Shown here one piece after another: positions 1 through 38,300 of a stretch of 64,000 bases of DNA (the first letter of the stretch is position 1; every line of letters begins with the position of its first letter). This stretch comes from a virus, in the IMG/VR virus record IMGVR_UViG_3300035698_004199, positions 10,292-74,291 of that record; one strand, given 5' to 3'. Position numbers and translations under genes: made by a program. Below the pieces are notes generated by a model. That model was given only the letters and a program-made list of their open reading frames with translations, was not told the DNA's origin and made no database searches.

Positions 1-576
1 AACAGTTGCAGCCGCAACTCCGCTTACAAAAGCTATAACAGGGTTTGGATAGGTGCTTCCAAGCAGATCCCCCCCAGCAGCTCCTACAGGAGCCCTGCCA
101 TTTGTCATTCTTGTGTCCGAGGAAGTTACATATGGATTTATTGCGCTCGGGGCACCGGAAGTTCCTGCTAAAGCAGCTTTTTGTACAGTAGACGGGATGT
201 CTACATGTAGGTAGGCCACTTCGTGTGCTGCTCTTTGCCCTGCAACGGTTGCAGCAGCAACACCACCTACAAGGGCTACTGTTGGGGTGGGGTAATGCCC
301 ACTTAAGTCACCAGCAGCAGCCCCAGTCGTGGGCCTGCTGTCTGTCATACGAGCATCGCTGTTTGTAACATACTTGTTAGCAGCACTGGGAGCACCATCA
401 GTGCCAACCAGTGCACCCTTTTCGTTTGCACTTGGAAGTGTGGCATGGGCAAAGGCAGCTTCATGTGCTGTACGTTGTCCTGCAACAGCAGCAGTACCAT
501 CTATAAGATCTACCGTAGGGTCTGGGTAAGCACCGCCCAAATCACCACCAGCGGGGCCTGCAGGGTCAGCCCCCTT
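1..576 (-). CDS. Partial repeat protein (virion fibre/decoration-like, 'GGDLxGxYPxPTV' repeats); runs off the window start; start codon uncertain
   Basis: Not in the ORF track. Hand translation of the minus strand is open from 585 to 1: GADPAGPAGGDLGGAYPDPTV...GAAAGDLSGHYPTPTV...GAAGGDLLGSTYPNPVI, with units of 78-80 aa. The first canonical starts are TTG 540 and ATG 348, both inside the repeat region. Confidence 0.7.
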
Positions 577-629
577 AAGAAACCCTTACCTAATAGCTAG
601 ATAAATATAAACAATATAAACAGCCGAGT

Positions 630-645
630 CGGTTGATTAGTTATA
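630..645 (+). promoter_or_regulatory. Putative phage late promoter (CGGT-N7-TTATA)
   Basis: Lies in the divergent intergenic region upstream of the + strand operon. The same spaced motif recurs in other intergenic gaps. Confidence 0.5.
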
Positions 646-718
646 GGAAAGCCTTTGTTGAGGTCCTATGGTTTCGCCTCTTTTTCCCATAGGGCCTCAC
701 TTTAAGAGGAGCTATTCT

Positions 719-937
719 ATGGGATACAGACAATTATCAGACATACGGGTGTACGAGTATGTGCTAGAAGACGGCACAGTAGTCTGGTCTTTTACCAAAT
801 CACCGAATCTAGTAACACCGCCACAACGTATGTCCCTGCAAAACAAACACGGACTTCTTCTATCCTCCTTTATTGGAGGTCTTAGAAAAGAAGGCATGGC
901 ACTTTTACGCGGTGCTGAAGAAGATGATGTTGGGTAA
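719..937 (+). CDS. Hypothetical protein (72 aa)
   Basis: The RBS AAGAGGAG precedes ATG 719, which is in frame with the 668 ORF call. No recognisable motif. Confidence 0.7.
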   Translation: MGYRQLSDIRVYEYVLEDGTVVWSFTKSPNLVTPPQRMSLQNKHGLLLSSFIGGLRKEGMALLRGAEEDDVG

Positions 938-984
938 TATAGAGTAGATTCTATTGTGGAATAAATTTAAAAAGGAGAACACAG

Positions 985-1323
985 ATGACTGACAAGATGC
1001 CCGAAGTAGCAGGTGAGACACCCCAGGATCCCAACATTGTGGGGACACTGAACGAAGAAGAAATGCAGACCTTGTTTGGTTTGCGGCAGCAGGGAAGCCA
1101 GATCACTATGGAGATTGGTTCCTTGGAGCTTCGCAAGGCAAAGTTTTTGGGGGACATGGCCCGAGTGGAACAGAAGGGACAGGAACTTCTGCAATCCGTA
1201 GGAAAACGCTTGAATTTGGATGACCAGTCTTGGCAGGTATTGCCTGACGGTTGTATCCGAATGGTAGTTTTGGATACAGCTCCTGAAGCGGAGACTGCTA
1301 AGGAGACTGCGAAGGAAGGCTAG
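985..1323 (+). CDS. Small acidic coiled-coil hypothetical protein
   Basis: RBS AAGGAG; central helical heptad-like segment; abuts the next gene. Confidence 0.8.
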   Translation: MTDKMPEVAGETPQDPNIVGTLNEEEMQTLFGLRQQGSQITMEIGSLELRKAKFLGDMARVEQKGQELLQSVGKRLNLDDQSWQVLPDGCIRMVVLDTAPEAETAKETAKEG

Positions 1324-2736
1324 ATGACGCAAGGATGGGACCCCACTCCCGGACAGGTAATTTACCCACCTCAGAATGGTCAAGTGACTTCACCCTTTCA
1401 ACAGGGTGTCCACGACATACACTGGGACAACCCGGCATTATTGGGGGGTAACTCTCAATTTGTCGTGGTTGGGGTGAATATCTATAGATCTGATGTTTCA
1501 GATCGGGGTCCCTTTTTTCGTATTAACTCAGTTCCTCTAGGTGGCAACTTTTTCCGCGATGCCACTACTAATGAATACATTTACAAAGAGTCTGTACGGT
1601 GGGATACTGCTTGGGTTGCCAAGGGGGATGCTGCTAATAGTCGTAAGTGGGTTTTTAGAACTACAAGGCCCATAGTCAAACAAATCCCGGAAGGCCCCTT
1701 TCAGGTGGTTACGAATGCCAACCAACCTTCGGACATAACATTATATATAGATGGTGTGCAGGTTCCTGTGGATAGTTTGTTTGGCCCCACGGGTGATGTG
1801 ACTTTGATAAATGTGCCAACCTTTAATGGTGTTACTGAGAAAAACGATCCCGCAGCAATTCCAACAGCAGCCAGTGTAGTAGAAGTTTCTTACTGGACAA
1901 ATAGGAATCAAGTACGGTCTGGCTTAGGCAGCAACTTATTTTATAGGTTGACTACTGTAGTCCTAGACAGTACAACACCCAGTGGTTATCGTGAGTCTGA
2001 ACTTCAGAACACCCCGGTATTGACTCTGGGGGACGTGGAGAAAATAGATTACATTTGGCGGGAAGCTATTAGAAGGAATCACTGGATTCTGCAACAGGGT
2101 GGCGAACGTGTGAATGTGTTTATTAGGCGTCTATCAGGAATACCTTGTTATTGTGGTAAAGACGCTGAAACATATGAATACAATAAGCAGCCCTCAAATA
2201 GATGTACAATCTGTTTTGGAACTGGTTTCATTGGCGGGTATGAGGGCCCCTATACAGTTATAATAGGTCCCGACGATTCTGAACGTCGCATCTCACAAGG
2301 CCCTAATGGGCGTAGACAGGAACACACTTATGAAGTTTGGACCGGACCATCCCCTGTGATTACCCAGCGTGACTTTATAGTTAAACTGACTAATGAGCGT
2401 TACAGCGTAGGCCCTGTGCGAAGACCCTCTAATAGAGGCAATAGGCTGCAGCAACACTTTAACATAGCCTATCTGGATGAGCAAGATGTTCGGTATTCAG
2501 TGCCTATTGACGGAACAGTAAATTATACTTGGCCTGAGACTCGGTATGGCCTCCGTCATTACCCCCCCACACCTGTTGATGGACAGCCAGCAACAACTCA
2601 GTGGGCTGTACCAGAAGTTCCTCTCTATCCTGTAGGGGCTTCTGCTGAGATCCCTATGGAAACACAGAAGGCGGGCACGCCGGATGAAAAAGAACAAAGA
2701 GGCCGTACACCGGCTTGGGAAAACCAAAACACATAA
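1324..2736 (+). CDS. Putative neck / head-completion protein with CxC...CxxCxGTG zinc motif
   Basis: GERVNVFIRRLSGIPCYC...RCTICFGTGFIGGY resembles the Cys-rich neck proteins of large myophages. The gene sits upstream of the tail genes and has an N-terminal beta-rich insertion. Confidence 0.6.
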   Translation: MTQGWDPTPGQVIYPPQNGQVTSPFQQGVHDIHWDNPALLGGNSQFVVVGVNIYRSDVSDRGPFFRINSVPLGGNFFRDATTNEYIYKESVRWDTAWVAKGDAANSRKWVFRTTRPIVKQIPEGPFQVVTNANQPSDITLYIDGVQVPVDSLFGPTGDVTLINVPTFNGVTEKNDPAAIPTAASVVEVSYWTNRNQVRSGLGSNLFYRLTTVVLDSTTPSGYRESELQNTPVLTLGDVEKIDYIWREAIRRNHWILQQGGERVNVFIRRLSGIPCYCGKDAETYEYNKQPSNRCTICFGTGFIGGYEGPYTVIIGPDDSERRISQGPNGRRQEHTYEVWTGPSPVITQRDFIVKLTNERYSVGPVRRPSNRGNRLQQHFNIAYLDEQDVRYSVPIDGTVNYTWPETRYGLRHYPPTPVDGQPATTQWAVPEVPLYPVGASAEIPMETQKAGTPDEKEQRGRTPAWENQNT

Positions 2737-2747
2737 GGAGGTTTTCA

Positions 2748-3011
2748 ATGGCAACTTTTTTTGTTTCAGATCGTGTTAGGCTGTCTACTGGTGTAGAGGC
2801 TGTGGTTGTTTTGTCAACTTCAGGACTTGTTGCTATGGATAAGCAAGGGGCTATCTATCCTGAATCGGATCTCCTTGATGCACAGCTTGCTCCTGCACCA
2901 AGATGCGTAACAAATCCTTTCGGTCCTCCAAGAGGGCTTTCCAAGGTGACTGGATTTTCTGATTTTGATATTGCCGATGACGTAGATGCTTTGTCCGGCC
3001 CTTTACCTTAA
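2748..3011 (+). CDS. Hypothetical protein (87 aa)
   Basis: Strong RBS TAAGGAGG before ATG 2748. Confidence 0.7.
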   Translation: MATFFVSDRVRLSTGVEAVVVLSTSGLVAMDKQGAIYPESDLLDAQLAPAPRCVTNPFGPPRGLSKVTGFSDFDIADDVDALSGPLP

Positions 3012-3018
3012 TAATGTT

Positions 3019-3624
3019 ATGATTATCGCCCCACGCATAAGAGCAGTTTTTGGAGGCCCGCTAAGTAGAAAAACCGAAGTGACCTTTACACCAGAGATGC
3101 TGGAAAAAGTGGGTGCTTGTTTAGTAGAGGCTTTGTCAAATGAGTCAAAGAAGTACTTTGCTAAGCGGGGGTGGGTTGGACACGACCCTATGGGAGGACC
3201 GCCAATTTGGGAGTCTTTCTCTTATAGGATACGAGGTAAGAGCACCCTGGAATTAACTTCTACTTTTTATGGTATGAAGGAACTTGCAGCAGGGGGTATC
3301 CCGGAACGCAAGATGACGTGGCTTACTCAGGAAGCAAAGGACAGGAATCCTTCTGAATACCCGTTAACAAAACAGGAACAAAAACTAGGTATGAAAAGAA
3401 CGGGTAGAGTATCACAAGGTGATCGGATGCCCTTAATTGTGCCCATGAAAGGGACTGGTGGTATCGTGGTATTTAGGCAGGCCCCTTTAACAACGGGATC
3501 CGCTTGGGTTCATCCAGGTATTGCTAAGTTTACTTTTTTTGAGACTGCTTTAAGAAAGTGGCGGGGTGTTTGTGCTGAATTGATAGTCCAAGAAATGTTT
3601 GCCCAACTTTCAAGCGGCAAGTGA
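3019..3624 (+). CDS. Putative neck / virion morphogenesis protein
   Basis: Basic protein with a C-terminal AWVHPG...FFETAL motif reminiscent of HK97 gp10-like neck proteins, in the neck-gene neighbourhood. Start uncertain (2986 or 3019). Confidence 0.5.
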   Translation: MIIAPRIRAVFGGPLSRKTEVTFTPEMLEKVGACLVEALSNESKKYFAKRGWVGHDPMGGPPIWESFSYRIRGKSTLELTSTFYGMKELAAGGIPERKMTWLTQEAKDRNPSEYPLTKQEQKLGMKRTGRVSQGDRMPLIVPMKGTGGIVVFRQAPLTTGSAWVHPGIAKFTFFETALRKWRGVCAELIVQEMFAQLSSGK

Positions 3625-3634
3625 GGTAGTGAAT

Positions 3635-4195
3635 ATGAAAGAAGCAATTGTTAAGTGTCTCTGTGCTTTTCTAAAGTTAGCAGATCTAAACCTGGAACTA
3701 AAGCAAGGGGATGAAGTATCCTTGACTATGGGTGAGGTTATGAGTTCAAAAGACTTGAAGCGGGCTATTCGTTTCAGGGCTGTAACCATTACATATAGAA
3801 ATGTATGTAAAGAACAGAGGCTCCCTTCTGAAGAAGTGAAGGCCCCTAAAGTGGTGCCACCCGTAATGAAGCCCCATCCCGTGGCAGCCCCTGTAAAAGC
3901 ACCGGCAGTACAACCACAGCCTTCAGTTATCCCAAACCTGGTACAGGAATTGAAAAAAGAAATGATGTCCGGGTTAAAGCAATTGTTACAAGAGCTGGCA
4001 CCCCAAGTGATTGCAGGCAAAACGACACAAGTTTCACAGGTTTCTCAGGATACTCCAATGTTTATTCCTAAAGGGATGGTGTCTAAGGACACTGCTTCTG
4101 TGAAAGTGAAAACAGAACAGTCTGATGGGGGCTCTTTGGATAATGCAGCTGCGGTTTTGAAGAAAGCCCGCAAGGGAGGTAAGAAAAATGACTAA
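3635..4195 (+). CDS. Hypothetical protein with Pro-rich linker; possible partner of the actin-like protein
   Basis: RBS GAGGT before ATG 3635. Small N-terminal domain, Pro/Val/Lys-rich linker and basic C-terminal helix. Overlaps the next start by 8 nt. Confidence 0.75.
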   Translation: MKEAIVKCLCAFLKLADLNLELKQGDEVSLTMGEVMSSKDLKRAIRFRAVTITYRNVCKEQRLPSEEVKAPKVVPPVMKPHPVAAPVKAPAVQPQPSVIPNLVQELKKEMMSGLKQLLQELAPQVIAGKTTQVSQVSQDTPMFIPKGMVSKDTASVKVKTEQSDGGSLDNAAAVLKKARKGGKKND

Positions 4196-5201
4196 GGAAA
4201 AAACTTTGACAGGATGCTCTATAGATGTGGGCACCATGAATTTTGTTTCTGCTCGTAGGACAGCCAATGGGATTGAGACTAAACGTATGCGGGACGTGTT
4301 TTTGGATCTCCCGGCTAATGCAAAGAAGATGCTCAAACTTTCAGGGACCTCTTTTGTAGACCGTGGTGATGAGGTGTTAATCCTTGGGGATGCTGCTATG
4401 GAGATGGCTAATGTTTTTGGTAGGGAGCCCAGACGGCCTCTGTCAGCAGGTATTATTTCAGCTTCAGAAGCAGACAGTCTTGAAGTGCTTGGACTGTTGG
4501 TCAAAAGTGTGTTGGGTGAGCCAAAGAAGAAAGGCGAGGTTTGTTACTTTTCTGTACCGGCTGCTCCTATAGACGATCCAGGAAAAGATATTGTTTATCA
4601 CAAGGGTGTGTTTGAACGCATTATAAAGGAATGTGGGTACACACCGTTTGCAGGAAATGAGGCTATGGCACTCATCTATTCAGAGGCTGCAGCGGAAGGT
4701 TTCTCTGGATTATCGTTGAGCTACGGGTGCGGAATGACCAACGCTGCACTTGCAATAAATACTATTGAGGGCTTGACTTTTGCAGTAGGACGGGGCGGTG
4801 ACTTTATAGATCGTGGGGCAGCCCAGTCTGTAGGGTCTACACAGGCTAGAGTATGTGCAATCAAAGAAGCGGGGTTTGATCTGAATAACCCAGATGGCCG
4901 TGTCCAGGAGGCCCTAGCTTTCTATTACAAGGCTCTTATAGAGTATACACTAGATAACATAGTAGCTCGCTTCAAGTCCATTGAAGGCCAGTTTGCGCTG
5001 TCTAAGCCCATACCACTAATAATTTCAGGAGGTACGAGTTTGGCAGGTGGTTTTATGGAGTTCTTCGGTAAGGTGTTTGAGGAGCGTAGAAAGAAGTTTC
5101 CTATTGACATATCTGAAATCAGGCAGGCTAACGAGCCACTAAATGCCGTGGCTTATGGGCTACTGGTTCAAGCAATGCAAGAAGGAGAAGATGATGACTG
5201 A
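4188..5201 (+). CDS. Actin-like ATPase (ASKHA fold; MreB/ParM/MamK/Alp superfamily)
   Basis: All five actin-fold motifs occur in order within 337 aa: phosphate-1 IDVGT, connect-1 NEAMA, phosphate-2 SYGCGMTN (followed by GRGGDFID), adenosine ISGGTSLAGGF and connect-2 PLNAVAYG. Confidence 0.9.
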   Translation: MTKEKTLTGCSIDVGTMNFVSARRTANGIETKRMRDVFLDLPANAKKMLKLSGTSFVDRGDEVLILGDAAMEMANVFGREPRRPLSAGIISASEADSLEVLGLLVKSVLGEPKKKGEVCYFSVPAAPIDDPGKDIVYHKGVFERIIKECGYTPFAGNEAMALIYSEAAAEGFSGLSLSYGCGMTNAALAINTIEGLTFAVGRGGDFIDRGAAQSVGSTQARVCAIKEAGFDLNNPDGRVQEALAFYYKALIEYTLDNIVARFKSIEGQFALSKPIPLIISGGTSLAGGFMEFFGKVFEERRKKFPIDISEIRQANEPLNAVAYGLLVQAMQEGEDDD

Positions 5202-5343
5202 AGAAATTAGAGACATTGAATTTGTAGCGCTTCCTAAAGGTCTGTGGGCTTTTGTTGAGAGAGAAGGGGTAGAAGCGTTCGAAATTGAGAAAAGAGACAT
5301 ACCCGTAAAAATTAGGTTTGTCAAACCTGCTGACACAGAATAA
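5194..5343 (+). CDS. Small hypothetical protein (~49 aa)
   Basis: RBS AAGGAG; ATG at 5191/5194 overlaps the end of the actin-like gene. Confidence 0.6.
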   Translation: MTEEIRDIEFVALPKGLWAFVEREGVEAFEIEKRDIPVKIRFVKPADTE

Positions 5344-5363
5344 GACTAATAGGGAGGTGTCCC

Positions 5364-6563
5364 ATTTATTTCCGTTTAACAAGCGCATTGAAAAGAAGAT
5401 TCATCCAAGAGCTGCGGAAGTACTGGATGTACCATCCGCAGTATCCAGACTTGGCAAATAACATCCAAGGGAAGTATTCTTTTCAAGAGAGGCCCTCTTA
5501 TGGGATTATTGTTAAAACGGGCAGCGGAACTAAAGTAGACCTATCTGCAGACAATTATGTGGGCACTGTAATTAGCCACACCTATCTGGCAAAAGTACAA
5601 AACTTCCCAGGGCAAGCTATAGAGTGGGTACGGGAAGATGCTATTGCAATTCAAAACAACAATAGTAACTTTCCATCCCCTCCAGGTATTTACTACATAA
5701 CACTTACACAAGACAGAGAGTTTTATGTAGACCGAATGTTGGATGCCCGTGGGGAGCAAGTAGTCATGTCTGATTCCACACACGGTGTTCTACTTAGTCC
5801 ACCTATAGCGGGATCTATTCGATTGTATCAGGCTCCCTCTAACTATCAGTTAGTAGAAGGAACTGAGTACACACTAACCTTAGACGCAGCAGGGGATCCC
5901 ACTGGTGAGATTGCTTTGACAACACCCATACCTACCGGCTGGGTGTTAGTAGCGGACTATAGGCTAAATGGGGGGCAGGGCGGCCCTTATACAATCAACC
6001 CCAACTATGCTGATACAAAAGCTATCCCCGGTGTGGTTTTGGCTTTTGGGCGACGTAACCAGAAGGACGACCGGATGGCAGTGGTAGTAGAGCCTTATAG
6101 GCGGCCTACAGCCCTTGAATACGGTGGCCAATGGGAAATGACTCTGGACTTTGATGTCACTTCTAGAGACTTAGACGCTCAGCAAGAGATAGCAGATTTT
6201 TCGGTTATGTATCTTTGGGGTGTTTTGCGATCTCAGTTGGCTTCTGAAGGTTTGGTTATTACAGATGTTTCACTGGGTGGCGAGTCTGAAGAAGTTTATG
6301 ATGAGAATGGTGATGATTATTTTTACAATTCCAATTTTTCTGTTACTGTAACCACAGACTGGTCTATCCATGTACCGCTTGCAGTATTTGTCAGGGCGGT
6401 TTCACCTTTGCCACAAGACCAGCTGCGTTTACTCAGCATGCTACCGGATGACCAACTAGGGGCCGTCCAGAATAATATTACGATGCTGGAAAGCTTGGGA
6501 CTACAAAGTATGTCGGATCCTTATTTCAGCAACAGAACAGAAACTTTTGAAGCACTTAAATAA
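5364..6563 (+). CDS. Putative tail terminator / tail completion protein (probable ATT start)
   Basis: The C-terminal MTLDFDVTSRDLDAQQEIADF...FSVTVTTDW pattern fits the tail-terminator fold, and the gene lies shortly before the sheath. GGGAGGT precedes an in-frame ATT at 5364; the ORF track start is TTG 5388. Confidence 0.55.
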   Translation: MYFRLTSALKRRFIQELRKYWMYHPQYPDLANNIQGKYSFQERPSYGIIVKTGSGTKVDLSADNYVGTVISHTYLAKVQNFPGQAIEWVREDAIAIQNNNSNFPSPPGIYYITLTQDREFYVDRMLDARGEQVVMSDSTHGVLLSPPIAGSIRLYQAPSNYQLVEGTEYTLTLDAAGDPTGEIALTTPIPTGWVLVADYRLNGGQGGPYTINPNYADTKAIPGVVLAFGRRNQKDDRMAVVVEPYRRPTALEYGGQWEMTLDFDVTSRDLDAQQEIADFSVMYLWGVLRSQLASEGLVITDVSLGGESEEVYDENGDDYFYNSNFSVTVTTDWSIHVPLAVFVRAVSPLPQDQLRLLSMLPDDQLGAVQNNITMLESLGLQSMSDPYFSNRTETFEALK

Positions 6564-6577
6564 AGGAGGCTGAATTT

Positions 6578-7018
6578 ATGCCACGGTATCAATATCAATG
6601 TAATTGCGGGGTGCTTTTTGAAGCAACAGCCTCTATGAAGGATCACAGTCAAACAAAGCCTTGTCCTGATTGTGGTGAGCAATCATCTAGAAAAATGCCT
6701 ACAGATATTAACAGCACATTCAATCAGAGTATGGAAGGGATAGGCCCACAGAATACAGGGGTGTCACAGTTGGATGCTCATATAGATAGAGTGATAGGGC
6801 AGTCTGCACAACAGAGCTGGTCTGAGATAGAAAAACGTGAGCGTGTCAAAAAAGAAATACTGGCTAAGAATCCTAATATTCCTGTATCACAACTATCAAG
6901 AAATCCAGACGGATCTTATAGAATACTAAAGCCAGAAGAAAAGGCTGTGCAGGAAAGAGCCTTGAAAATTGACGCCCTAGCAGTTGAAAATCAGAAAAAT
7001 AACCCCCCTCCTAATTAG
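6578..7018 (+). CDS. FmdB-family zinc-ribbon protein
   Basis: MPRYQYQCNCG..FE...CPDCG matches the FmdB N-terminal signature; RBS AAGGAGG. Confidence 0.85.
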   Translation: MPRYQYQCNCGVLFEATASMKDHSQTKPCPDCGEQSSRKMPTDINSTFNQSMEGIGPQNTGVSQLDAHIDRVIGQSAQQSWSEIEKRERVKKEILAKNPNIPVSQLSRNPDGSYRILKPEEKAVQERALKIDALAVENQKNNPPPN

Positions 7019-7025
7019 CATCCTT

Positions 7026-7041
7026 CGTTTTTCCCTTGATA
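7026..7041 (+). promoter_or_regulatory. Putative late promoter for the sheath gene (CGTT-N7-TGATA)
   Basis: Instance of the recurrent spaced motif in the gap before the sheath gene. Confidence 0.45.
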
Positions 7042-7130
7042 CTTTTGTTTTAATAGTGTGGCAGGTCTATCCGGTCACTATGAAAATGTGAAGATTTTTT
7101 GGGCTTTAACCTATGTATGCGAGGTACTCA

Positions 7131-10100
7131 ATGGCCTTTTCTGGAAGAAACTATGCTCCTCCTGGTATTTATACCCAGACAAATTTTGAAAACCCTTTGG
7201 GCTCTGCTTTAGAAAGCCTCAAAATCCCTGTGATTATCGGGGAAGGAAATGAGGACCTTTTCCAACAGGATTTGGAAGTGGTTAGAGGTTCCTCTGCTTC
7301 AGTAGATCAGCAAGTCGTTCAGGAGGATCAGACCGGAAGGGCTGTTTTCTCTATAAGTGCTGCTGGGGTTGTAACTAGGACAGCGTTTGATGGTGTCTTG
7401 GACAAATTCCAAGTAGTGAACCGCCCTATAGTTACAGGTGATGGCACCGGAACAACCACACTTAGCAGAAATGATATTGTGGTGACTGTAAATGATGAGC
7501 CTGTTGTGGTTCGTGCTATTACAGGCAGTACCGGTATAATTCAGCTGGCACAGGCACCTGTAGCGGGTGACCTTGTTCGTTGTACCTATTTCTTTAACAG
7601 AACAGACACTCTTGTGCTTGATGATGTTTCAGAACAGGTGCCGAACAGAATGGCAACAGTTCGGGCCGTACAGGGCTTGGCTGATGTGGATAGCCATCTT
7701 GCAGGGACAAGCACCTTGGACCTTCATGGTGATATCCTAAACCCAACTACAGGGGCAGTGGTTACTCCTGCTAACAACGTCTTGAATCTGGTTGTAGACG
7801 GTACTGCTAGGTCTATCACACTGTCGGCTAAAACCGATTATACAATGGCTCAGGTAGCTGCTGCGATAATTGCTGCTCAGGCAGGAACTTTGCTGGCCAG
7901 TACCTTTAATAACAACTATGGCATGTCTGCTTTGATGCTGACAGCAACTAACAGTCTTATTGTTAAGGCTGGTAGTGCAAATGGTGACATAGGTCTTGCA
8001 GATAATTCTGCTGACAATCGTACCAGTACCTTTTATGTGTTTAATGGACCAATTGTGGACGGAACCGGTGGCGGCGTTATTACTACCGATCCTTCCCATG
8101 TAACCGTAAGGGTTGCAGGTCGCCAGGTAATACCTACTGCTGTTGATGGTAGTACAAGAGCTGTTACTTTGGCTCAAGCCCCCGCTGCGGGTGTTACTGT
8201 TACTATTCAGTACTACTGGAATACTTGGCAAGACACTTTTGATTACCTTGCTCACATAGGGGTAACAAGTGTAAGTCGCTGTGGGACAGTTCCTGGAAGT
8301 ACAGACTACACTGAGGATGCTGATTTTATTCTACAGAATGACAGAATCATGTGGGGTACAGCGGCAACTACAGAAGCAGGACTGAATACTGTAGGTGCGA
8401 CAACCTTTGATACTGCCCAGATCTCAATGACCTTGGTAGACAACAGGGTGTTTATGTCTCCTTGCACGTCACTTTCAGGTTTGACATTCCAACTTCCGCT
8501 AAACCCAACTTTGGGCAATGGGCGTGACACACCTCTGGGCTCTAGCCTTTTCCAGACTCTCAGCAATGGAAGGATTGACCTTCCTGTTAACCGCCCTGAT
8601 GTGATTTGGGCTTACTGGGGATATAGTGTTCAGGATGCTCTTAACAGAGGCAAGGTTGAAGTTATTAAAGTTGAGGGTATTGTCATCACCCTGAGCGAAA
8701 CGGTCCCTACAGGGGCCACAGTTTATGCTACTGCATATTACAATCAATTGACAGACAGTACTTATACACTGGCTTGCATAACAGAAGGCCCTATGGGCAC
8801 CGGACAGTATGGCATAACAGATGCCAATGCTGATGATGTCTATGCTCCTTATATGGTAGCAGGCAGCAAGGGTGCTGGACTGACAGGTATTACAGTTGAG
8901 TTCCCCAGTGGATCTGAGCTGCTTCCTGACTTCAGGTTTGAAGCTGGTTCGGGCAGTCTGTTTGTAGGCCCCAAAGAAGAGATTGTAACTGTTCAATTGG
9001 AAGAACGGGATGCAACTTTGGCTAAGTATGTTCTTCCGGGAACTGCACCCTATGTGTTTATCCCCAGTGAGTCAGATCACCTGAGGCTTACATTACGTGC
9101 TGCTGACGTGTTTACAGCCACAGGCTTGGACCTTGGGTCTCCTTCAGCAGTGGCAGCTCACTCGGAGGGCTTTTTCTCTACTCTAGTAGGGTCTGAAATT
9201 TCTTATACAGGTACTCTGGCTGGAACTGTAGGTCAGACATTCACTACTACAGCAACAGAAAACCTTACTCTTAAAATAGATGGTGTGACTGTTCCAGTAG
9301 TGATACCGCCTACTACAGGGTTTGACGCATCTGATATGGTGGAACGTATCAACGATAGTGCGAGTGGTCATCATGGTGTGCCTGTTGGGTTGGGTGGTGC
9401 AAGCACTATTCTGTTGGCATCTATAGCGTCAACTGCAGATGATTATTATGTGGGTTGGAAAGTTGTAATAGGAAATGGAGGGGCTGTAGGTGTGGCAACC
9501 CAGGAGACCCGTACTATAACAGCTTATGCTGGTGGTGTTACTCAGATAGCAACGGTTGACGTTCCTTGGACGGGAACACCACCTACAACCGCTGACACTT
9601 ACTACATTTACAATCCTGAAACTGTAGCTGTTATGACAGGGGCCACTAAGTTTAATAGTTCTGTAGAGATTGACGCAAACGATTTCAATCTTTTGAACTT
9701 TATCTATACAGGAGATACCAACACTACTACTGGACCACTGGTTGCTACAATCTCATCTGCTACTTATGGGTCAGCCGCTCTATTAGCAGCACAAGTTGAA
9801 ACCCAACTTGTAACCGCTGTCTCTACTATTTTGGGAGCAAGCCCCGAATTTACAGGCCTGACGATTTTCTGTGCTGCAAACTCAGAAGGTCAACTTGAAT
9901 TTTCCATGCAGTTGCCTGGTGATGATAGTGCTGGTATGCTTGAATTTGTGGAAGATGCAACTCCTGCCAAGGACTTTGCTATTCTGGCAGGTTTGAGTAC
10001 CGGTGCAGCAACTAATAGCAGTCAGACCGCTCTAATACAGGGGCCTGTGGCTTGGGCTTATGAATGCCCCGATTCTACCCATCTCAAGATTTATGACCGT

Positions 10101-12469: not shown

Positions 12470-12856
12470 ATGCAATACACAATGCAAGAGTTATCAGAGG
12501 CCGCGGGAGTTCCAGGCCGCACAATCCGTTATTACATTTCTGAAGGTTTGCTTCAGGGGCCCACTATGCTAGGGTCAAAAGCCAACTATACGGAAGAGCA
12601 CCGGCAGAAATTAGAAAAGATCAAAAAGCAAAAAGAGCAAGGCCAATCTTTACAAGAGATTCAATTTGCTCAGCTACAAGACTTTGGAATAGTTTTACCT
12701 GAACCAGTTTGTGGTTGCGTTTGGGAAGAATACCTTGTGGCAAACAATATGTGGTTTAGATTGAAGGTGGGTTGTTTACCCCCGCATAAGAAACGTCAGG
12801 TTTTGAAAATCTTGGCTAAATTCATTAAGTCTATCAAAGAGGAGATTGACAAATGA
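12470..12856 (+). CDS. MerR-family HTH DNA-binding protein
   Basis: YTMQELSEAAGVPGRTIRYYISEGLL...YTEEHRQKLEKIK...GQSLQEI is a canonical MerR HTH. Confidence 0.92.
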   Translation: MQYTMQELSEAAGVPGRTIRYYISEGLLQGPTMLGSKANYTEEHRQKLEKIKKQKEQGQSLQEIQFAQLQDFGIVLPEPVCGCVWEEYLVANNMWFRLKVGCLPPHKKRQVLKILAKFIKSIKEEIDK

Positions 12857-15240
12857 AAACAGAAAGAACAGGGTTGTTTAATTCTAATGGTGGGGCTGTC
12901 CGTTTGGCAATGGAACGTGTGGAACTGACAGGTCAAGTAGGACCTACAGGTGGCGTCCTAACCTTGTTGCACAGCTTCAAGTGTGCGGAAAAATCACCAA
13001 TGGAAGCTGTTTATGTGTTCCAACTGCCCAGAGGTGGAGTGATTAGGCGTTTCAAAGTAAAGGGGGAAGACTTTGAAGTTGAATCCGAACTGAAACCCAA
13101 AGTAGAAGCACGTGAAACATATGAGGCGGGCATTGAAGCAGGACACCAGTCTACATTGCTAGAGACAGGACCAGATGGTTTGATCTCTTTAATGGTGGGG
13201 CAAGTGCAGCCGGATGAATCTATTGTTGTAGCAGTAGAGCTTGTTTGTGGTGTTGAACTGCGGGATTCAGAATACAGGTTCCGGTTCCCATTGACTCTAG
13301 CACCCAACTACCATTCAAATTCGACCAGTTACAATAGTTCCCAGGGCTTGAAGATAGAAATGCCAGCAAAGATTTTTGGGGATCTGTTGCTTCCTACTTG
13401 GGTTGACACTAATAGTGAAACACATGAGATCCGTTGTAATCTTCGGGTGGCTGCTTTGGGCCAAATGGGGAAAGTTTCTTCCATCTCTCACAATATAGGT
13501 GTAACACCAAACTCAGACGGATCCGCAGATATTAGTTTGATGGTTGGAAGTCAAAAGGATTGTGATAGAGACTTTGTTCTGGACGTACAGACAAAGACAT
13601 TAGCACCCTGCTTATTTGCAGATGAATCCTTGCTGGCCTTTAAAGAGCAAGAGCCCGGTAAGCCCCGGTGGCTTGTAAGCATCCCTGCTGAAACAATTCC
13701 TGCTCAAGAAGCGGCTAGTAGGGATGTCGTGTTTTTACTGGATCAATCCTACTCTATGAAAGGTTCTAGACTTAACCAAGCCAAAGCAGCTTTGAAGGCT
13801 TGTCTTTCTGCTCTGAATCCAACAGATAGGTTTGGGCTGCTCAGCTTTAATAATGTGGTAAAACAGTTTCATGACACTATGGCTAAAGCAACAGATACAA
13901 ACAGAAAAAGGGCTGACAAGTTTCTAGAGGGGCTTATTGCGGATTCCGGTACAGGATTGTTAGAAGCTCTAGGTCAGGCAGTAGCATTGGCAGGGCATGA
14001 TGGCGATATCTTTTTGCTTACAGATGGGGAGGTTTACGAAACGGGTTCTATTATTCAAAACACAGCCCAAGCGGGATGTAAGGTACATGTTCTTGGGGTT
14101 GGAGACGCCTCTCAGGATCGTTTTCTAGCACAACTAGCTGCTAAAACAGGCGGTCTTCAGAAGATGGCAAACAGTAATGAAAACGTAGCAGAATCCGCTT
14201 TGGAATTGTTTTCTGCTGTTAAAAGCCCAAAGCAACAGAATGTAGTGGCAAAGGTTTTCGGTTCAGGAAAGCCTTTGTCTATCAAGGTAGGGCATGTATG
14301 GAGTGGTAGACCTATATTGCTTAGAGATGAAAGCAATCAGGCATCCTTTATCCCTACTAAGGTAGAACTATCCTGGGGTGCAAAAGAAAAGACACAGGTC
14401 CTTTTGACAGAACAGAAGATCATGCCTGATGATGTGTTGGCTTTAGCATGGGCAGGGAAGCAGGTTGAAGATATGGAAGCAGCTTTAGACAGTGCAGCAC
14501 AAGGCCCTGCATATGTAGCTCTCAATCGGAAACTGAAAGACTTGTCTATAAAGTATGGCTTGGCTTCCCGTGTCATGTCGCTGTGTGCTGTGATGAAACG
14601 TGTGGGTGACATTGCAGGGGAAACTTCAAAGCAAGTGATTTGCCCTGTAAAAATGCCTTGGGATCGCAGTAAGACAGAGCTTATTTGTTGTGCTTGCAAT
14701 TCTAGTATGGATTTCGCCCCAACGGTTACTTATCATCGGATTTGCAGCGGGGGTGATGCCTTGACAAATAGAGGCCTTCTCCCTATAGCACAGAATAGTA
14801 GTCGTTTCTGTGATATAGGGGGCGGTGGTAGCTGGGGCGGTGGCTGGGGCGGTGATGTTTCAGCAGCGAGTCTTCCAATGCTTGTAGAAGACTGTGATAG
14901 TTGCACACTTGAAGAGGACTGTTATAGTTCTTTGATTGACTATGTGGGATGTCTGCAGGCAGATGGTAGTGTACCTAATACAAATAGAGAAACCTCTGTA
15001 CTCAAAACTTTGTTGCTGGCAATTCTGATCAAACAATCAAACCAAGCATTTATTTTTGCATCTCATATGAAAAAAATGCTGGTCTTTCTGAAAGCCAATC
15101 AAGATTTTACTTGGGTTCCGGGAGTTGTATCCTTTTTGGAAAGCGATAAAAACCCGCACAGCCTTATAGATTGGGATGTTGAATATAAGACGGCACAAGT
15201 CATGACACCCGCATTAGAAAGCTACCTGCAACAGCTTTAG
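12853..15240 (+). CDS. VIT + vWA domain protein (VWA5A/PARP4/ITIH-like architecture)
   Basis: VIT domain (EAVYVFQLP...EARETYEAGIEAG) and vWA with intact MIDAS (DQSYS, T in SGTGL, LLTDG). Post-vWA KYGLASRVMSLCAV and LQADGS motifs. ATGA overlap with the MerR gene. Confidence 0.9.
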   Translation: MKTERTGLFNSNGGAVRLAMERVELTGQVGPTGGVLTLLHSFKCAEKSPMEAVYVFQLPRGGVIRRFKVKGEDFEVESELKPKVEARETYEAGIEAGHQSTLLETGPDGLISLMVGQVQPDESIVVAVELVCGVELRDSEYRFRFPLTLAPNYHSNSTSYNSSQGLKIEMPAKIFGDLLLPTWVDTNSETHEIRCNLRVAALGQMGKVSSISHNIGVTPNSDGSADISLMVGSQKDCDRDFVLDVQTKTLAPCLFADESLLAFKEQEPGKPRWLVSIPAETIPAQEAASRDVVFLLDQSYSMKGSRLNQAKAALKACLSALNPTDRFGLLSFNNVVKQFHDTMAKATDTNRKRADKFLEGLIADSGTGLLEALGQAVALAGHDGDIFLLTDGEVYETGSIIQNTAQAGCKVHVLGVGDASQDRFLAQLAAKTGGLQKMANSNENVAESALELFSAVKSPKQQNVVAKVFGSGKPLSIKVGHVWSGRPILLRDESNQASFIPTKVELSWGAKEKTQVLLTEQKIMPDDVLALAWAGKQVEDMEAALDSAAQGPAYVALNRKLKDLSIKYGLASRVMSLCAVMKRVGDIAGETSKQVICPVKMPWDRSKTELICCACNSSMDFAPTVTYHRICSGGDALTNRGLLPIAQNSSRFCDIGGGGSWGGGWGGDVSAASLPMLVEDCDSCTLEEDCYSSLIDYVGCLQADGSVPNTNRETSVLKTLLLAILIKQSNQAFIFASHMKKMLVFLKANQDFTWVPGVVSFLESDKNPHSLIDWDVEYKTAQVMTPALESYLQQL

Positions 15241-32356: not shown

Positions 32357-35300
32357 ATGGGCTTTGATTTTCCAGGATATGTGCTCCGCAGTATTAATAT
32401 TGCTTCCAGTAATGCAACTGATTCTGGGGAGCCTGATACAGGAGTGGTGAGAGATCCTCGTCCTGTGCCACCCTCTTACACTTTAGATTCAAAAAGTGTA
32501 CCCCCTTTAGGAGCACCTCCTGCTTTCGTTGATCCTTTTGCAGATCAATATAGAGCTGCAGTGTTGGATGCTCCCGGTACAACCCCGCAAGAATATCTTG
32601 TATGGGCACAGAATACAGGAAGCTTAGCTCTGATAGAGGATCCTGATTGGTGGCTTGAATGTGGCACAGGAAAGTTTTCGGAGGGCACACTTACAGTCAT
32701 TGATGCCTTAGCACAACCGGAAGACCCCGCTATTGAGGACGGTGCTGATAGAGTTATTGTATCTGATGATGGCAATAGGTCCCTGGGTAGAATTACACAT
32801 CTTGTAGTTGCTCGGGGGGATGTGGCTTATGATGATGGGGGGTGGGTAAACCAGAACATTCCTTCATTTGGGCGAAAGGGGGGTGAGCCCTATCTTGTGT
32901 TGGATATAGCAATTGAGGACCAGAACCCCGTGTCAGGTGTTGTAGCTTTAACAGATGCACAATTAACATCTTTGGGCGGAGGCCTTTCTCATTTGCGTGG
33001 TGACAGGATTATTACAGTTCGGTATACAATAGCGTCTATAAGATTCTGGTGGACCCGAAATGATCGTTATGAAACACGCTTTGGCTGGAATCAAAGTACC
33101 AGACGATGGGAGCCTTACAAGGGATCTACTGTAAAGAATCTGGGCACTATTTTATTTGACCAGACATACCAGCTAGAGCCTAAGATCCGAAACTTACCTT
33201 GGGGGGCTTACCTGCCAGGAGACTCCCTAGTACCCGATTCTTATTCAATGGTACGTGTGGGAACAACCCCCGGTGCAGGCAGCACTCCATTAGACAACAT
33301 ACAGGTACGTTTGGATTCAGAGATCGCGGACTTTGATTTTTCATCGCACACAACTCTTAATGGGGTGTTAGGCCAAACAACAGGCATCCTCAAGCTGAGC
33401 CCAACTTTTGTAAAACTAAATGCAGGCAGTTCTATATGGTATGCCCCCAAGTCATTTACACAGAAGGCAGATGGGATAGTTGGCGGCATGCGCTTAGCAG
33501 ATGCAAGTCCGCTTTACATAGCACCTATTCCGGGGCCTACAGACAGGCCAATTATTCAATTTGGAAACAGAGCGCCCTTGACAGTAATCCTTATGGATAC
33601 CGATGCCTTAGTAACTTTAGCAGCCCCTGCCTCAGGAACAGTTTTGGTTTCTTTGTCCACAGGCCGTCTACGTTTCTGCCCTACAGATTTAGATGTGGCA
33701 GTTCCCACGTCAACACTTTTCAGTAAACATTATTTAGGTGAACAGGTGTTCTATAATGGGGTGTCTTTGAATCAAGAGCCCCAGCCAACAAAACTACCTG
33801 CATACTTATTGAATAGTATGGGTGGTCAAGGCACTGCTTCCATAGATACTATTCTTTATATCCCAGATGCTGTGGGTTTGCCACTAGATCTTGCTCAAGA
33901 CAGAAAAGGTCTGGGCATATCAGGCATTATAGACGCCCCTGATGGCACCGGAGCCTTACCGGCACGGGAAGGTGTGGATGCGTGTATAAGGCCCGGAGGG
34001 GATACTGTAGGGGCTTTGGCAACGGGACGTGTAAGGCAGATCCCTGATGATGTGGGGGACACCATCTTATTCTCACGTGCGGGTGCCATAGAGACAATTC
34101 AAGAAGTAGACTTAGCTAGTGACATTGCTACTGTTATAGGAAAACGTAAGAGCCCTGCAAAGGGTACTGCCATAGTGGCCAGAGAAAAAAGTACTTATGG
34201 TTCGGCTGTGCTTCTAAGTAAAAAAGACAGGCAACAGATTGGGGATGAGTCTGTTTATTTCGTACAGGCAACACTAACCCCAGCGGTCTATACAGAAGAA
34301 GCAAAAATCTATTCACGGAACAGAGATATTTTCCGTTTTGATGGTACTGAAACCATTTACTTTGCGATTGATGGGGATGCGTTTACATGGAACCCTGCAG
34401 CACTTTTGATAGCACTCCCAAGCCAGGATTATTACACTGCTGAAGAGGTTGCACTATCTATTCAAAACGATACAACACCACCACTACCAGCAAGCTCTTG
34501 TGTAGCTCAAAGTGGCAGGATTGTTTTGATAGGTGCTGCTGATGTTGAAATAGGTTTTGGTACAAACCAGATGAAGGATTTATCTGGTTGTGCGGTTTTG
34601 GGATTTCTTCCAGGTTGGCAGGCCCATGTAGGATCTGGTAACTGGCTTCCCGATTCGGGGGCTGCTGTAGGTTTGTATAGAAGCCCCTTAAATGTGAATA
34701 GGGAAAACAGCACTCCAGATTATGCAGCAACAGCAAGAATAGAGGATCTGTTGTTGGATAGTGACATTCAAGCTAACCCCTATTATTTCCTAAGTCAAAA
34801 GCCTTTGCAAGATATTGCTGGGTTTGATGAGAACATCTTTTTTGCATTGCAGGCTATCGTGACGGATGGGGATACTACAACCATCATTAATAGGCCCTTG
34901 CAGCACTTTGAAGATATTGTACATCGGTTTGGGCAAGGTAAGTTTGATTGGATTGCGGGACAAGCAGTTGCAGAAGCACTAGACAAGACAACTACAACAT
35001 TGAACTTCGGCGTGCCGAGTTTAGTAGAGGAGTCTTTTCTGGGTGTTTCAAGTATTGCTGCGGGTCTCTATATATCATCAGATGGTGGTGCTTTTAGTTT
35101 CCAAGATCCGGATAGTGATTTTATAATGCCCAACTCAGGGCTTTCAGGTACCGCTACTTTAATAGAAAGATTTGGACAACTGCTTGGGTCCGGTGCCCAG
35201 GGGTTTGTCGCAGAAGGTCTTAACACCCTACTAGATGCCACTGCTCATTTTCAGTCAGGTGCTCATTTTCAACAAACGCTGAAAGAGGGCTGTAGGGTGA

Positions 35301-38300
35301 AAATCCTCTCAGGAGACAATGCTGGATCTTACCTGGTGACTGCTATTCTATCTGAGACTACATTAACAGTGGACATCCCGTTCCAAACCAGTAACTTCTT
35401 ACCCCTTCAGTGGGAGATTTATGAGGGCTACCCGGACAGTGCATATGACCCTGCTTTGATTGCGGACGTTTCTTTTAAGGAGTTCAATCATATTCAAGAT
35501 GAACCCTTTAAGATTCGGATGCTTCAAGATACAGGGATTGTACCAGTATCCGTATCAGCTCAGTCGGCAGATCGTTTGATAGCAGATGTAACTGAAGCAC
35601 AAAACAGACCTGTAGGGCTACGTTTTGGTTTAGTAGCACCCACAGCGGCAGTAACAGCCACTTTGAGTTACTTAACCAAGGTAAAGCTGGGATTGCTTGC
35701 AAACGGGACACTAATTGTACCAGACACCAGTTCTCTGCGTTTTGCAGGCGGCTTCTTCTCTATTCAGATAGGAACACAGAACTTTGTGCCTGTTGGGGTG
35801 ACTTCTTTTAGTTCTAACCCTGTAACTGTCGAATACTTGACACAAGACGACCCTTCAGCGGCTTCTTTCACCCCAAAGGGCAGTTTGAAGTTCAGTTCAA
35901 CGCTTCTCAGCACACAAGCAGCTTCCCAGGTCTATTATGTGGAGGATTTCCTTGATCCTGCATTATTGGCAGCTAACACAGCAGAATACAGAGATAACGG
36001 GCAGATAAACCTATCTTCTGCTGATATAGCTCTGTTTGCAGGGACTAAACTGTATTTTGTGCAGCAAATGGTAACTGAAGGCAAAAAAGACGTTGCGATC
36101 AGCCCTATGCTCGGAGCTTTTTCCTTTAATGGTCCTGTACCCAAGAATTCTGTCATTGAAGCAGAATATTGGCGGGCAGACATGGAAGGCCGCAAAACAG
36201 GTGACATGGTTACAGAGACATTACCTGTATTTATCAGAAGAGAGGTTACAACCCTTGACTCACCCCGTGTTTACAAGTTTAACACTATTGGCTACAATAT
36301 AGACCAAAGAATCATACCTTCTGTTTGGATCGGGGCTACACTTCAAAACTTTGGGTCGGAAGATTGTGTTGTAGACTATCCAGCATCTTGGAATGGGTCT
36401 GGGCGTATTACTTTTCTTAAAACTGTGGATGCTACTGTAGTCCAGGTAAACTATGCGGTGTTTGAAGCACAAGGTGGAGAGCGTGCTTTTGAAGCCAGCC
36501 AGAAGAACATATACCGCCCCCCATTCTTTATCAAAGCTAATCAGAGTCAGTTTGGTCTTCGCGGAGACCGGACTGGTGAGTTCCAGGTAGGACAGATGCT
36601 TCGATTCGGGGAGGACTGCTTTTACATAAAGAGTTTGTTGTATTATCCTGCAACTGCTACCGGAGGGGACATAACTGCTGTAGGTATCTACCCCCCTACA
36701 ATAACAGAAGAGGGCAGTAGGTCCCCAGGTAATGACGTGCTGGCACTTATTACAGATAGGCCTGTCACTCCCATTATTGATCCAGATGGCACTAGTCCGA
36801 TAGCAACAACAGCAGCTACAGGGTTCTTTTCAACTATAGATTTAGACACCTTTCCTTTTGAATCTGTTTCCAGGGGACAGAAAGTTATTGTGTTCCAAGG
36901 GAACCTTCTGTCTTTTGCGGTAGCAGGACATCTATTAGAATTAGGTGGGTGCCCTTATACGATAGCAAGTGCTGAGTTGACCACTGATGGTGCTAAAACA
37001 AAGGTGACAGTTACAGGCGGCTTCCTCAAGGGTTTTGCTGTTGGGGACAACCCAACAGTATTGATGTCCTATAGACCTGTATACCCACCTGAGACACGTG
37101 ACTTTTTGGGTGTAGGCCCAGTATTGGATTCTGAACCTGTAGAGGTTGTGCTTTTCGGTGAGACAGATGTTACAGGCACAGCGTTGCCTGGACGTACCTT
37201 GATCCCTGAAGTAGAGTACAAGCTGGATTATGACTCGGGAGTTGTGCAGTTATTAGCACCTGTTCAAGAGCCTTTTGATGTAGATCAGAAGTTGTTGCTG
37301 TCTTTTACAAGGTTACGCAGTCTGCAGCCTTATATGCAAAATCAAGTGTTAGTGACCCCTCGTTATTGGGCAGACTTTTATTATGCAAAAGCACCTGATG
37401 TTGAAAATGGTATTTTGGGGGGATCCTTAGTTGGCACCTATACATATTATTCCCCGGACTCCTTCTATTTTAGGGCTGTCAAACTAACTCAGTATATGGG
37501 AGAGGTTGCACAGGATGCAATCAAAGAGATTCAGTCTAAGCAAGTTGCTGGTGGTGCATCTCTAATTTCAGCTGGTGGTACAGCAAACTGGGAACAGGGG
37601 CGTATGGGCCTAAGGGCAGTAGGTAAGAATCTTTTAGATATTGATAGGGCGGCAAGGTCTTTCCTTGAGTTCTACAATCAATCTGTGGAATCCTTTGAGC
37701 AGATTCTTGAAACCATTTCAGGCGGCTTTATAGGTGATACAGATGGCAAGTTCCGTTTTTGGATAGGACACGATAGAGAGTATCCAACACCTGGATATGA
37801 TGATGCTATCGCAGGGATTCTACAACACCGTTTAGTGTGGAATGATGTTTTTAATGCCGATTTAGAAGATCCTATTTTCTGTCAAACAGGTGATTGGCTT
37901 GTTAAACCCAAGTCCGCAGATATCACAGATGCTCAAATTTCTGGAGTGTTCATACCAGTTGACCAGCTGGAAACTCTAAAAACACAACAAAGAGGTTTGA
38001 TCTGGAATGATATTGATGACACGGTACTTACTCAAATGGGGAAACCTGTAATTAAGCGGCTGCCCTATGGTCTGTATATAGCACTTAAAGCCAAGGGTGT
38101 TTATAAACAAATGGGTGAAAGCCACGATTTGTCAAGGCTTTTCCCCACTCAATCAGAAGCCTTCTTGCGGCTATACCCCGGAGCGGGGGCTGATATAGAT
38201 ACGGGCACAAACACAGGGACTTATACATATGGTCGGGTGGTTGACAATGCTTGGGCAAAGACTACTAATCAGCAGATAGGTCAGCTCGGCAATCCTGTCT

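Follow-up and report, generated by a model that had tools for sequence, protein, structure and literature searches.

Cytoskeletons built by phages have so far comprised the tubulins PhuZ and TubZ and a few DNA-handling actin-like proteins of prophages and plasmid-prophages. The Volactin family of actins has, to our knowledge, otherwise been studied only in haloarchaea. Here we describe a conserved, strongly constrained volactin gene that resides, together with a candidate adaptor gene of its own, among the neck and tail genes of a large clade of huge phages. The gene pair was analysed in a stretch of 64,000 nucleotides (nt) of the IMG/VR virus record IMGVR_UViG_3300035698_004199. This stretch, the window, covers bases 10292-74291 of the 74,291-nt contig, and all coordinates below are window positions. 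Our preferred reading, held with moderate confidence, is that the huge phage encodes a volactin-type actin filament and a dedicated adaptor, made late in infection, and that the system brings a gain in fitness and is not needed for the virion. Full-text literature searches on phage volactin, phage-encoded actin and the actins of jumbo or huge phages returned no description of such a system.

In Haloferax volcanii, volactin forms dynamic filaments in vivo and behaves like the dynamically unstable ParM; it has a role in cell-shape transitions, and the filament tips touch the membrane (PMC10869688). The volactin gene is adjoined by HVO_2016, which encodes a CdpA-like protein with four transmembrane segments (PMC12126565). 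The closest phage case is AlpAC of the CGP3 prophage of Corynebacterium glutamicum, where the adaptor gene precedes the actin gene and the two are co-transcribed (PMC4446434).

Results

The actin gene (4188-5201, + strand) is a complete open reading frame (ORF) of 337 amino acids (aa) encoding a Volactin-family protein, a predicted ATPase of the actin fold. It matches the Pfam family Volactin (PF25216) along profile positions 4-321 of 321, with an E-value of 1.2e-67 and 229.1 bits against a cut-off of 35. At E 0.01 Volactin is its sole Pfam match, with no match to MreB, HSP70 or ParM (StbA). The AlphaFold2 (AF2) model of the protein has a predicted local distance difference test score (pLDDT) of 68 and a predicted template modelling score (pTM) of 0.70, with subdomain IB poorly predicted. 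Foldseek relates the model to MreB and MamK with a probability of 1.0, and VIA-align superposes it on the MamK filament (Z 17.5 over 258 residues, root-mean-square deviation (rmsd) 4.5), FtsA (16.9), BeeR (16.6) and MreB (16.3), while DnaK scores Z ~15.4. Judged by the predicted model, the actin/ASKHA fold of the protein, with two RNase-H-like domains and a nucleotide cleft, is secure. A phmmer search of PDB with the actin gave no match. BFVD contains no close viral relative (identity <=18%), its best matches being viral Hsp70 homologues.

All motifs of the nucleotide site are found in the protein: DVGT (phosphate-1), NEA with E158, S178-Y-G-C-G, GGDFID and GGTS. Residues D13/G15/T16, E158, S178-x-G-x-G, GGDWID and GGTS are invariant or nearly so among 27 close and 45 diverse relatives, and the motif set is also kept in an alignment with named homologues from Haloarcula, Halogeometricum and Natrinema. 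The corresponding family set, DxGT, NE(A/G), S-x-G-x-G, GGDWID and GGT/S, is invariant or at least 90% conserved in the alignments tested. An initial annotation of the window had called a complete 337-aa phage actin, which agrees with the Pfam and fold matches, and had drawn attention to the serine that replaces the usual aspartate in the phosphate-2 motif. That serine (Ser178 in LSLSYGCGMTN) is present, but it is not peculiar to this actin, being near-invariant in the family, haloarchaeal volactins included. It is no sign of a dead enzyme, because volactin filaments assemble and disassemble in living H. volcanii cells.

In 59 of 59 loci the actin exceeds every other gene of its block in conservation, with a median identity to the window of 63.5%; the values are 54% for the 470-aa and terminator-like proteins, 42% for the 212-aa protein and 29% for the partner, all described below. 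Many actins of the family (P0121, P0123, P0126, P0127 and others) carry inteins with HNH or LAGLIDADG endonucleases. These inteins occupy at least four sites, within the phosphate-2 and GGDW motifs, and their placement in the ATP-site motifs of relatives marks those sites as the most constrained. Other family members carry the Volactin domain fused to a Wzz/GNVR/P-loop tyrosine-kinase-like module or to a ParB helix-turn-helix (HTH) domain (P0158, P0146), the ParB HTH fusion being P0146.

The actin gene is coupled to the gene of a 186-aa partner, a candidate adaptor (3635-4195, + strand), which has GAGG about 10 nt 5' of the start codon ATG and shares its last 8 nt with the beginning of the actin gene. 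In alignment the partner is conserved in architecture more than in sequence. An N-terminal domain of about 60 aa is followed by a variable Pro-rich and helical linker, the motif P-x-[FY]-[IV]-P-[ST] (the FIP motif), an acidic and Ser-rich stretch, and, at the C-terminus, a helix that fits DAAxALKAxRK (DAAxALKxxRK) and ends in basic residues. The protein shows no transmembrane segment. A partner profile found nothing in PDB below E 0.07, and a Pfam scan of 20 partners gave nothing meaningful, with the N-domain matching no DNA-binding family. The initial annotation had reported no ParR-like gene near the actin; a ParR homologue is indeed lacking, but the region it described does contain this adaptor-like partner.

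The tail of the partner follows the actin closely. A hidden Markov model (HMM) of the 15-residue helix matches partner genes only, among 8,491 ORFs from all loci, and also finds partners that inserted genes separate from the actin. Counts of the tail were scored by the FIP motif, as a strict HMM cut-off and another regular expression missed real tails. The FIP motif is present in 67 of the 68 non-identical partners that lie beside an actin, and the exception reads FFP. Five actin-less loci, scattered across the terminator tree, retain the gene of the N-domain, and in all five the FIP motif and the helix are gone. The loss of the tail together with the actin links the C-terminal module of the partner to the actin. 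The retention of the N-domain in these five loci suggests a separate function for this domain within the neck block.

A search anchored on the actin yielded 38 IMG/VR loci, and a search anchored on the terminator-like gene kept 80 of 235 viral stretches. The 38 actin loci share the order 470-aa gene, 212-aa gene, partner, actin, variable slot, terminator-like gene, zinc (Zn)-ribbon gene and 1744-aa gene, or a close variant of it. The same order is found in the huge phage LR745208.1 and recurs in more than 100 viral loci, so that the position of the actin in the array is kept across relatives. Among the terminator-anchored loci, 68 are informative and non-identical; the actin is present in 59 of them and missing from 9, a tenth seemingly actin-less row being an artefact of the 9-kb limit and excluded from the nine. 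The closest relatives of the actin-less loci carry actin, and 8 changes are required to explain the distribution of actin on the terminator tree; branches with good support enforce at least 6. Five actin-less records (7-49% complete) show no Volactin match elsewhere in the record. Such repeated loss marks the actin system as an accessory and not as an indispensable factor of assembly. One 297-kb record, IMGVR_UViG_3300025141_000016, holds two copies of the 470-aa/212-aa/partner/actin block (L016, L023), with one copy at the end of the contig and on the opposite strand. A duplication, a chimeric contig or an assembly error could each explain this arrangement.

A sister clade (L050-L057), with contigs of up to 277 kb, encodes an actin that is 38% identical. 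The ORF upstream of this actin again has a terminal FIP motif, with a DAAEKLRKLKGG-type helix in two of the three loci examined; in L053 the FIP motif occurs without the helix. Alignment of the partner profiles of the two clades with hhalign gives E 4e-4 over 43 columns. The sister-clade pair is flanked by genes for a NUDIX hydrolase, glycosyltransferases and a PAAR protein, and hhalign comparisons of these neighbours with the 470-aa, 212-aa and terminator profiles were negative. As the pair is kept while its flanks are not detectably related, the conserved unit is the partner-actin pair, and the neck position is kept within one large clade.

The volactin family comprises 1,021 representatives at 50% clustering in our HMMER search, 312 of them below 1e-30. 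In a FastTree phylogeny of 123 sequences, the haloarchaeal proteins form a separate clade, the actins with the phage synteny are part of a supported 62-row group, and the actin of the huge phage LR756511 lies in a neighbouring group; most of the remaining rows have no genome-context label. Relatives of P0144 were not found in viral contigs. Sequences more than 50% identical to the actin were found only on viral or phage-type contigs. Recent capture of a host MreB, against which the initial annotation had advised checking, is rejected on the grounds of this distribution and of membership in Volactin. Four contigs of metagenome-assembled genomes (MAGs) in GTDB (L043-L046), assigned to Thermoplasmata, Actinomycetota, Legionellales and 'uncultured bacterium', also hold the actin, three with the full block and L044 starting at the actin. 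A cellular origin of these four actins is rejected, as the phage block is present and the MAGs belong to unrelated phyla; the contigs are therefore mis-binned phage DNA.

The labelled haloarchaeal homologues are 37-38% identical to the phage actin, the closest labelled archaeal sequence compared being a member of Haloferacaceae, the family of H. volcanii. The gene upstream of the three haloarchaeal homologues encodes a product of some 300 aa. Its N-terminal half is hydrophobic and could span the membrane four times; an acidic linker and a VDAAVNGLRGLRGG-type motif are also present. This motif, VDAAVxGLRGLRGG, resembles the helix of the phage partner, and a loose pattern covering the phage and archaeal helices has no other match in about one million ORF residues. 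The resemblance is suggestive of a docking function shared by the phage tail and the haloarchaeal motif. Such a shared motif would fit the reported anchoring of volactin filament tips to the membrane.

The neighbouring genes, all on the + strand, form a compact block. Its first large gene (1324-2736) encodes a 470-aa virus-only protein with a conserved Cys4 motif, which has no Pfam, PHROG or PDB match, is syntenic in most loci, and has nearest Atlas clusters that are 97-100% viral. The 212-aa protein encoded at 2986-3624, always upstream of the partner across loci, is a candidate neck or tail-completion protein by leads from an Atlas structure search, namely HK97-gp10-like clusters (template modelling (TM) scores 0.46/0.71) and P2 gpS Phage_tail_S clusters (TM 0.52/0.58); by sequence it has no match in PDB. 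The neck genes that the initial annotation placed upstream of the actin are therefore represented by the 212-aa gene, through structural leads only, and the 470-aa gene is without assignment. Downstream of the actin, at 5364-6563, lies the gene of a protein whose AF2 model (pLDDT 76) has the fold of a tail terminator with an inserted immunoglobulin (Ig)-like domain. VIA-align relates the model to the phage 812 neck (Z 14.4), neck chains of E217 and Pa193 (13), the pyocin R2 collar (11.5), lambda gpU (11.3; 3fz2_C, 120 residues, rmsd 3.1) and the gp7 terminator of cyanophage A-1(L) (9.0), and Foldseek and VIA-align place the Ig-like domain at about residues 118-196. These matches bear out the tail terminator initially annotated at this place. 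The gene probably starts at ATT 5364, which has GGAGG 6 nt upstream; the product then begins with IYFRLTSALKRRF, matching MYFRLTSALKRRF (MYFRLT...) of relatives, which have ATG. The last gene of the tight array, syntenic across loci, encodes a 146-aa Zn-ribbon protein (6578-7018; Pfam Zn_ribbon_8, E 1.8e-9).

The slot after the actin (window 5201-5364; L005-L046) acts as a hot spot for insertions. Its length ranges from 14 nt to about 9 kb, and it contains unrelated small ORFs and homing-endonuclease-like genes; a homing-endonuclease-like gene is also inserted between partner and actin in L009, L018 and L037. In the window the slot holds a 50-aa ORF (5191-5343, + strand), which is preceded by GGAG and overlaps the actin stop in ATGATGACTGA. 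Related loci lack a homologue of this ORF and carry different small ORFs, or genes resembling those of homing endonucleases, in its place. The actin thus overlaps both of its neighbours, as initially described, but the 3' overlap is with this ORF and not with the terminator gene.

Genes from 668 to 7018 are tightly packed, with gaps of at most 94 nt, and co-transcription of the array is plausible from this arrangement; promoter and terminator scans remained at chance level. In profile searches of PDB, no E-value fell below 0.07 for the 470-aa, 212-aa and terminator-like proteins, for the C-terminal part of the 1744-aa protein or for the 273-aa protein; the last two had been given the tentative labels sheath and tube in the initial annotation. 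No structural role emerged from PHROG scans, which covered 18 ORFs. The initial annotation had seen no iteron array and no mreC, mreD or ftsZ gene nearby. In agreement with it, a search for iterons and repeats in window 1-7200 found only chance-level two-copy 12-nt matches, and the scanned ORFs include no match to the MreC/D or FtsZ families and no RodZ-like gene. A Pfam Tubulin match is missing from five related genomes that carry the actin; these span 275-485 kb, and two were judged complete.

The source contig is a linear record whose completeness CheckV estimates at 14%, which makes it a fragment of a genome of several hundred kb. In a tblastn search with the actin, matches were obtained in the genomes of two uncultured huge phages, at 66% identity in LR745208.1 (485 kb) and 30% in LR756511.1 (595 kb). 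Almost every long ORF of the window is on the + strand. Further downstream the window encodes a Baseplate_J protein, a weak match to a sheath initiator and a 1647-aa protein with an M15 peptidase domain, which together identify it as the structural region of a contractile-tailed phage.

Several other features were seen in the record. A two-gene cassette of a MerR regulator and a VIT/vWA protein (window 12470-15240) lies between the 1744-aa and 273-aa genes and is missing at the equivalent place in LR745208.1. Genome bases 5' of the window (L001:7604-8863) contain a minus-strand TnpB/IS605 OrfB gene, near a GIY-YIG gene and two genes of DUF5710-repeat proteins. A 4024-aa ORF with a Gly_rich_2 domain spans window 32357-44431, and several further ORFs of 1100-1750 aa match no family. 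Copies of the motif CGKT-N7-YKATR occur at window 630, 7026, 15243, 15340 and 58252, with five copies in + strand gaps; its six copies, against 3.4 expected, are not above chance overall.

Discussion

In our preferred reading, the phage actin would bind ATP and probably form dynamic filaments, as VolA does in H. volcanii. The C-terminal module of the adaptor, made of the FIP motif and an amphipathic basic helix, would probably dock on the actin, leaving the small N-domain to hold a cargo or an anchor. The pair is probably expressed with the neck and tail genes, late in infection. Within the infected cell the filament system would arrange some component, with virion parts or the site of their assembly as the most plausible candidates. 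Consistent with a polymer that has its own tether are the very high conservation of the actin, the intact ATP site, the inteins lodged in that site in relatives and the joint loss of actin and partner tail. The survival of the N-domain gene in the neck block tilts the choice of cargo weakly towards a virion part.

A role of the pair in virion assembly is possible. The initial annotation had proposed a role in morphogenesis, and this accords with the tight same-strand array that the pair shares with terminator-fold and neck-like genes; a necessary role in head-tail joining is unlikely, since the pair is missing from 9 of 68 loci and lies outside the neck genes in the sister clade. A more specific version, which we regard as unlikely, would have the N-domain of the adaptor bind either filled heads, at the neck or a part close to the portal, or completed tails; the dynamic filament would then bring together or line up heads and tails to be joined, as an actin-based counterpart of the PhuZ spindle in tubulin-less phages.

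Several observations weigh against the preferred reading. The timing of expression is deduced solely from gene packing, and the docking of partner on actin from the co-occurrence of tail and actin. The actin is absent from the nine related loci, and the sister-clade pair does not lie among recognisable neck genes. The helix pattern that joins phage and archaeal proteins was written after the motif had been seen, and the HMM of the phage tail does not reach the archaeal proteins. The actin model is only moderate, with its pLDDT of 68 and poor subdomain IB, and its fold scores do not tell filament formers from Hsp70-type domains such as DnaK.

This last ambiguity bears on one alternative, that the protein is a non-polymerising actin-fold ATPase acting in the manner of Hsp70 as an assembly chaperone for neck and tail parts, with the partner as co-factor. 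The closeness of DnaK/Hsp70 domains to MreB and MamK in score, the viral Hsp70 homologues that are its best BFVD matches and its place among neck and tail genes would suit such a chaperone. We nevertheless consider it quite improbable, as a substrate-binding domain is missing, the Pfam HSP70 family is not matched at E 0.01, the characterised family member volactin forms filaments (PMC10869688), and conservation above that of virion proteins fits a polymer with many interfaces. Somewhat easier to entertain, and still improbable, is a system that positions or segregates DNA like ParMRC or AlpAC, in which the N-domain would bind phage DNA, the filament would move genomes and the neck location would be incidental. 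Its appeal lies in the adaptor-then-actin order and co-transcription of alpAC in CGP3 (PMC4446434), the ParM-like behaviour of volactin (PMC10869688), the fusion of a family member to a ParB HTH (P0146) and the sister-clade pair outside neck genes. The locus itself argues otherwise: neither iterons nor a centromere-like array occur within 7 kb, no intergenic region lies 5' of the pair to hold a site, the partner N-domain matches no DNA-binding family, and an N-domain gene that stays in the neck block of actin-less relatives is a better fit to a virion-linked role.

The least probable alternative in our estimate is a take-over of the host envelope or cell shape, whereby the filament would reshape or enlarge the cell or organise membrane, and the partner would be its regulator. 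Volactin does act in cell-shape transitions, with filament tips that touch the membrane (PMC10869688), and the neighbour of cellular volactin is a membrane anchor with a similar motif (PMC12126565). The phage partner, however, has no transmembrane segment, and the scanned ORFs include no MreC/D- or RodZ-like genes.

If the phage actin polymerises, large phages would have a second, independent route to organising the infected cell. The natural actin-less relatives and the variants with truncated adaptors provide ready-made controls, and a docking motif common to phage and archaeal proteins could point to the anchoring of cellular volactin.

Comparison with known systems

MreB and MamK are the best structural matches of the actin (Z 16-17.5) and share the GGDxxD motif with it. 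The phage protein differs from MreB in having no Pfam MreB match at E 0.01, serine for aspartate at phosphate-2, and no MreC/D partners. It falls outside Hsp70, as it ends at residue 337 with neither a substrate-binding domain nor an HSP70 Pfam match. PhuZ, the spindle tubulin of nucleus-forming jumbo phages, is a cytoskeletal polymer that is likewise encoded by a very large phage, although it belongs to another protein superfamily and is not placed in a neck operon, and the system described here is known from genes alone.

The logic of a filament with an adaptor would be that of ParM/ParR/parC, where a C-terminal peptide of ParR binds the filament. In contrast to ParMRC, the phage locus has no centromere repeat, no ParM (StbA) Pfam match and no evidence of a ParR-like fold, and the gene order is reversed. 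AlpC and AlpA offer the likeness of a phage actin-like protein with an upstream adaptor, a comparison of layout and not of homology. AlpAC are early genes that tether phage DNA, whereas the volactin pair is surrounded by late structural genes and has no DNA site close by.

The described system is a volactin-family actin in huge phages. From VolA and its haloarchaeal homologues the phage proteins differ by forming a separate clade and by residing in a neck and tail block rather than on a cellular chromosome or megaplasmid. The adjacent CdpA-like protein, the anchor of the cell system with its four transmembrane segments, has no equivalent in the phage partner, which has a small soluble N-domain and no transmembrane segment. 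With VolA (HVO_2015) and its haloarchaeal homologues the phage actin shares the Pfam family, the motifs including the phosphate-2 serine and GGDWID, and a neighbour that bears a similar helix motif after a disordered linker.

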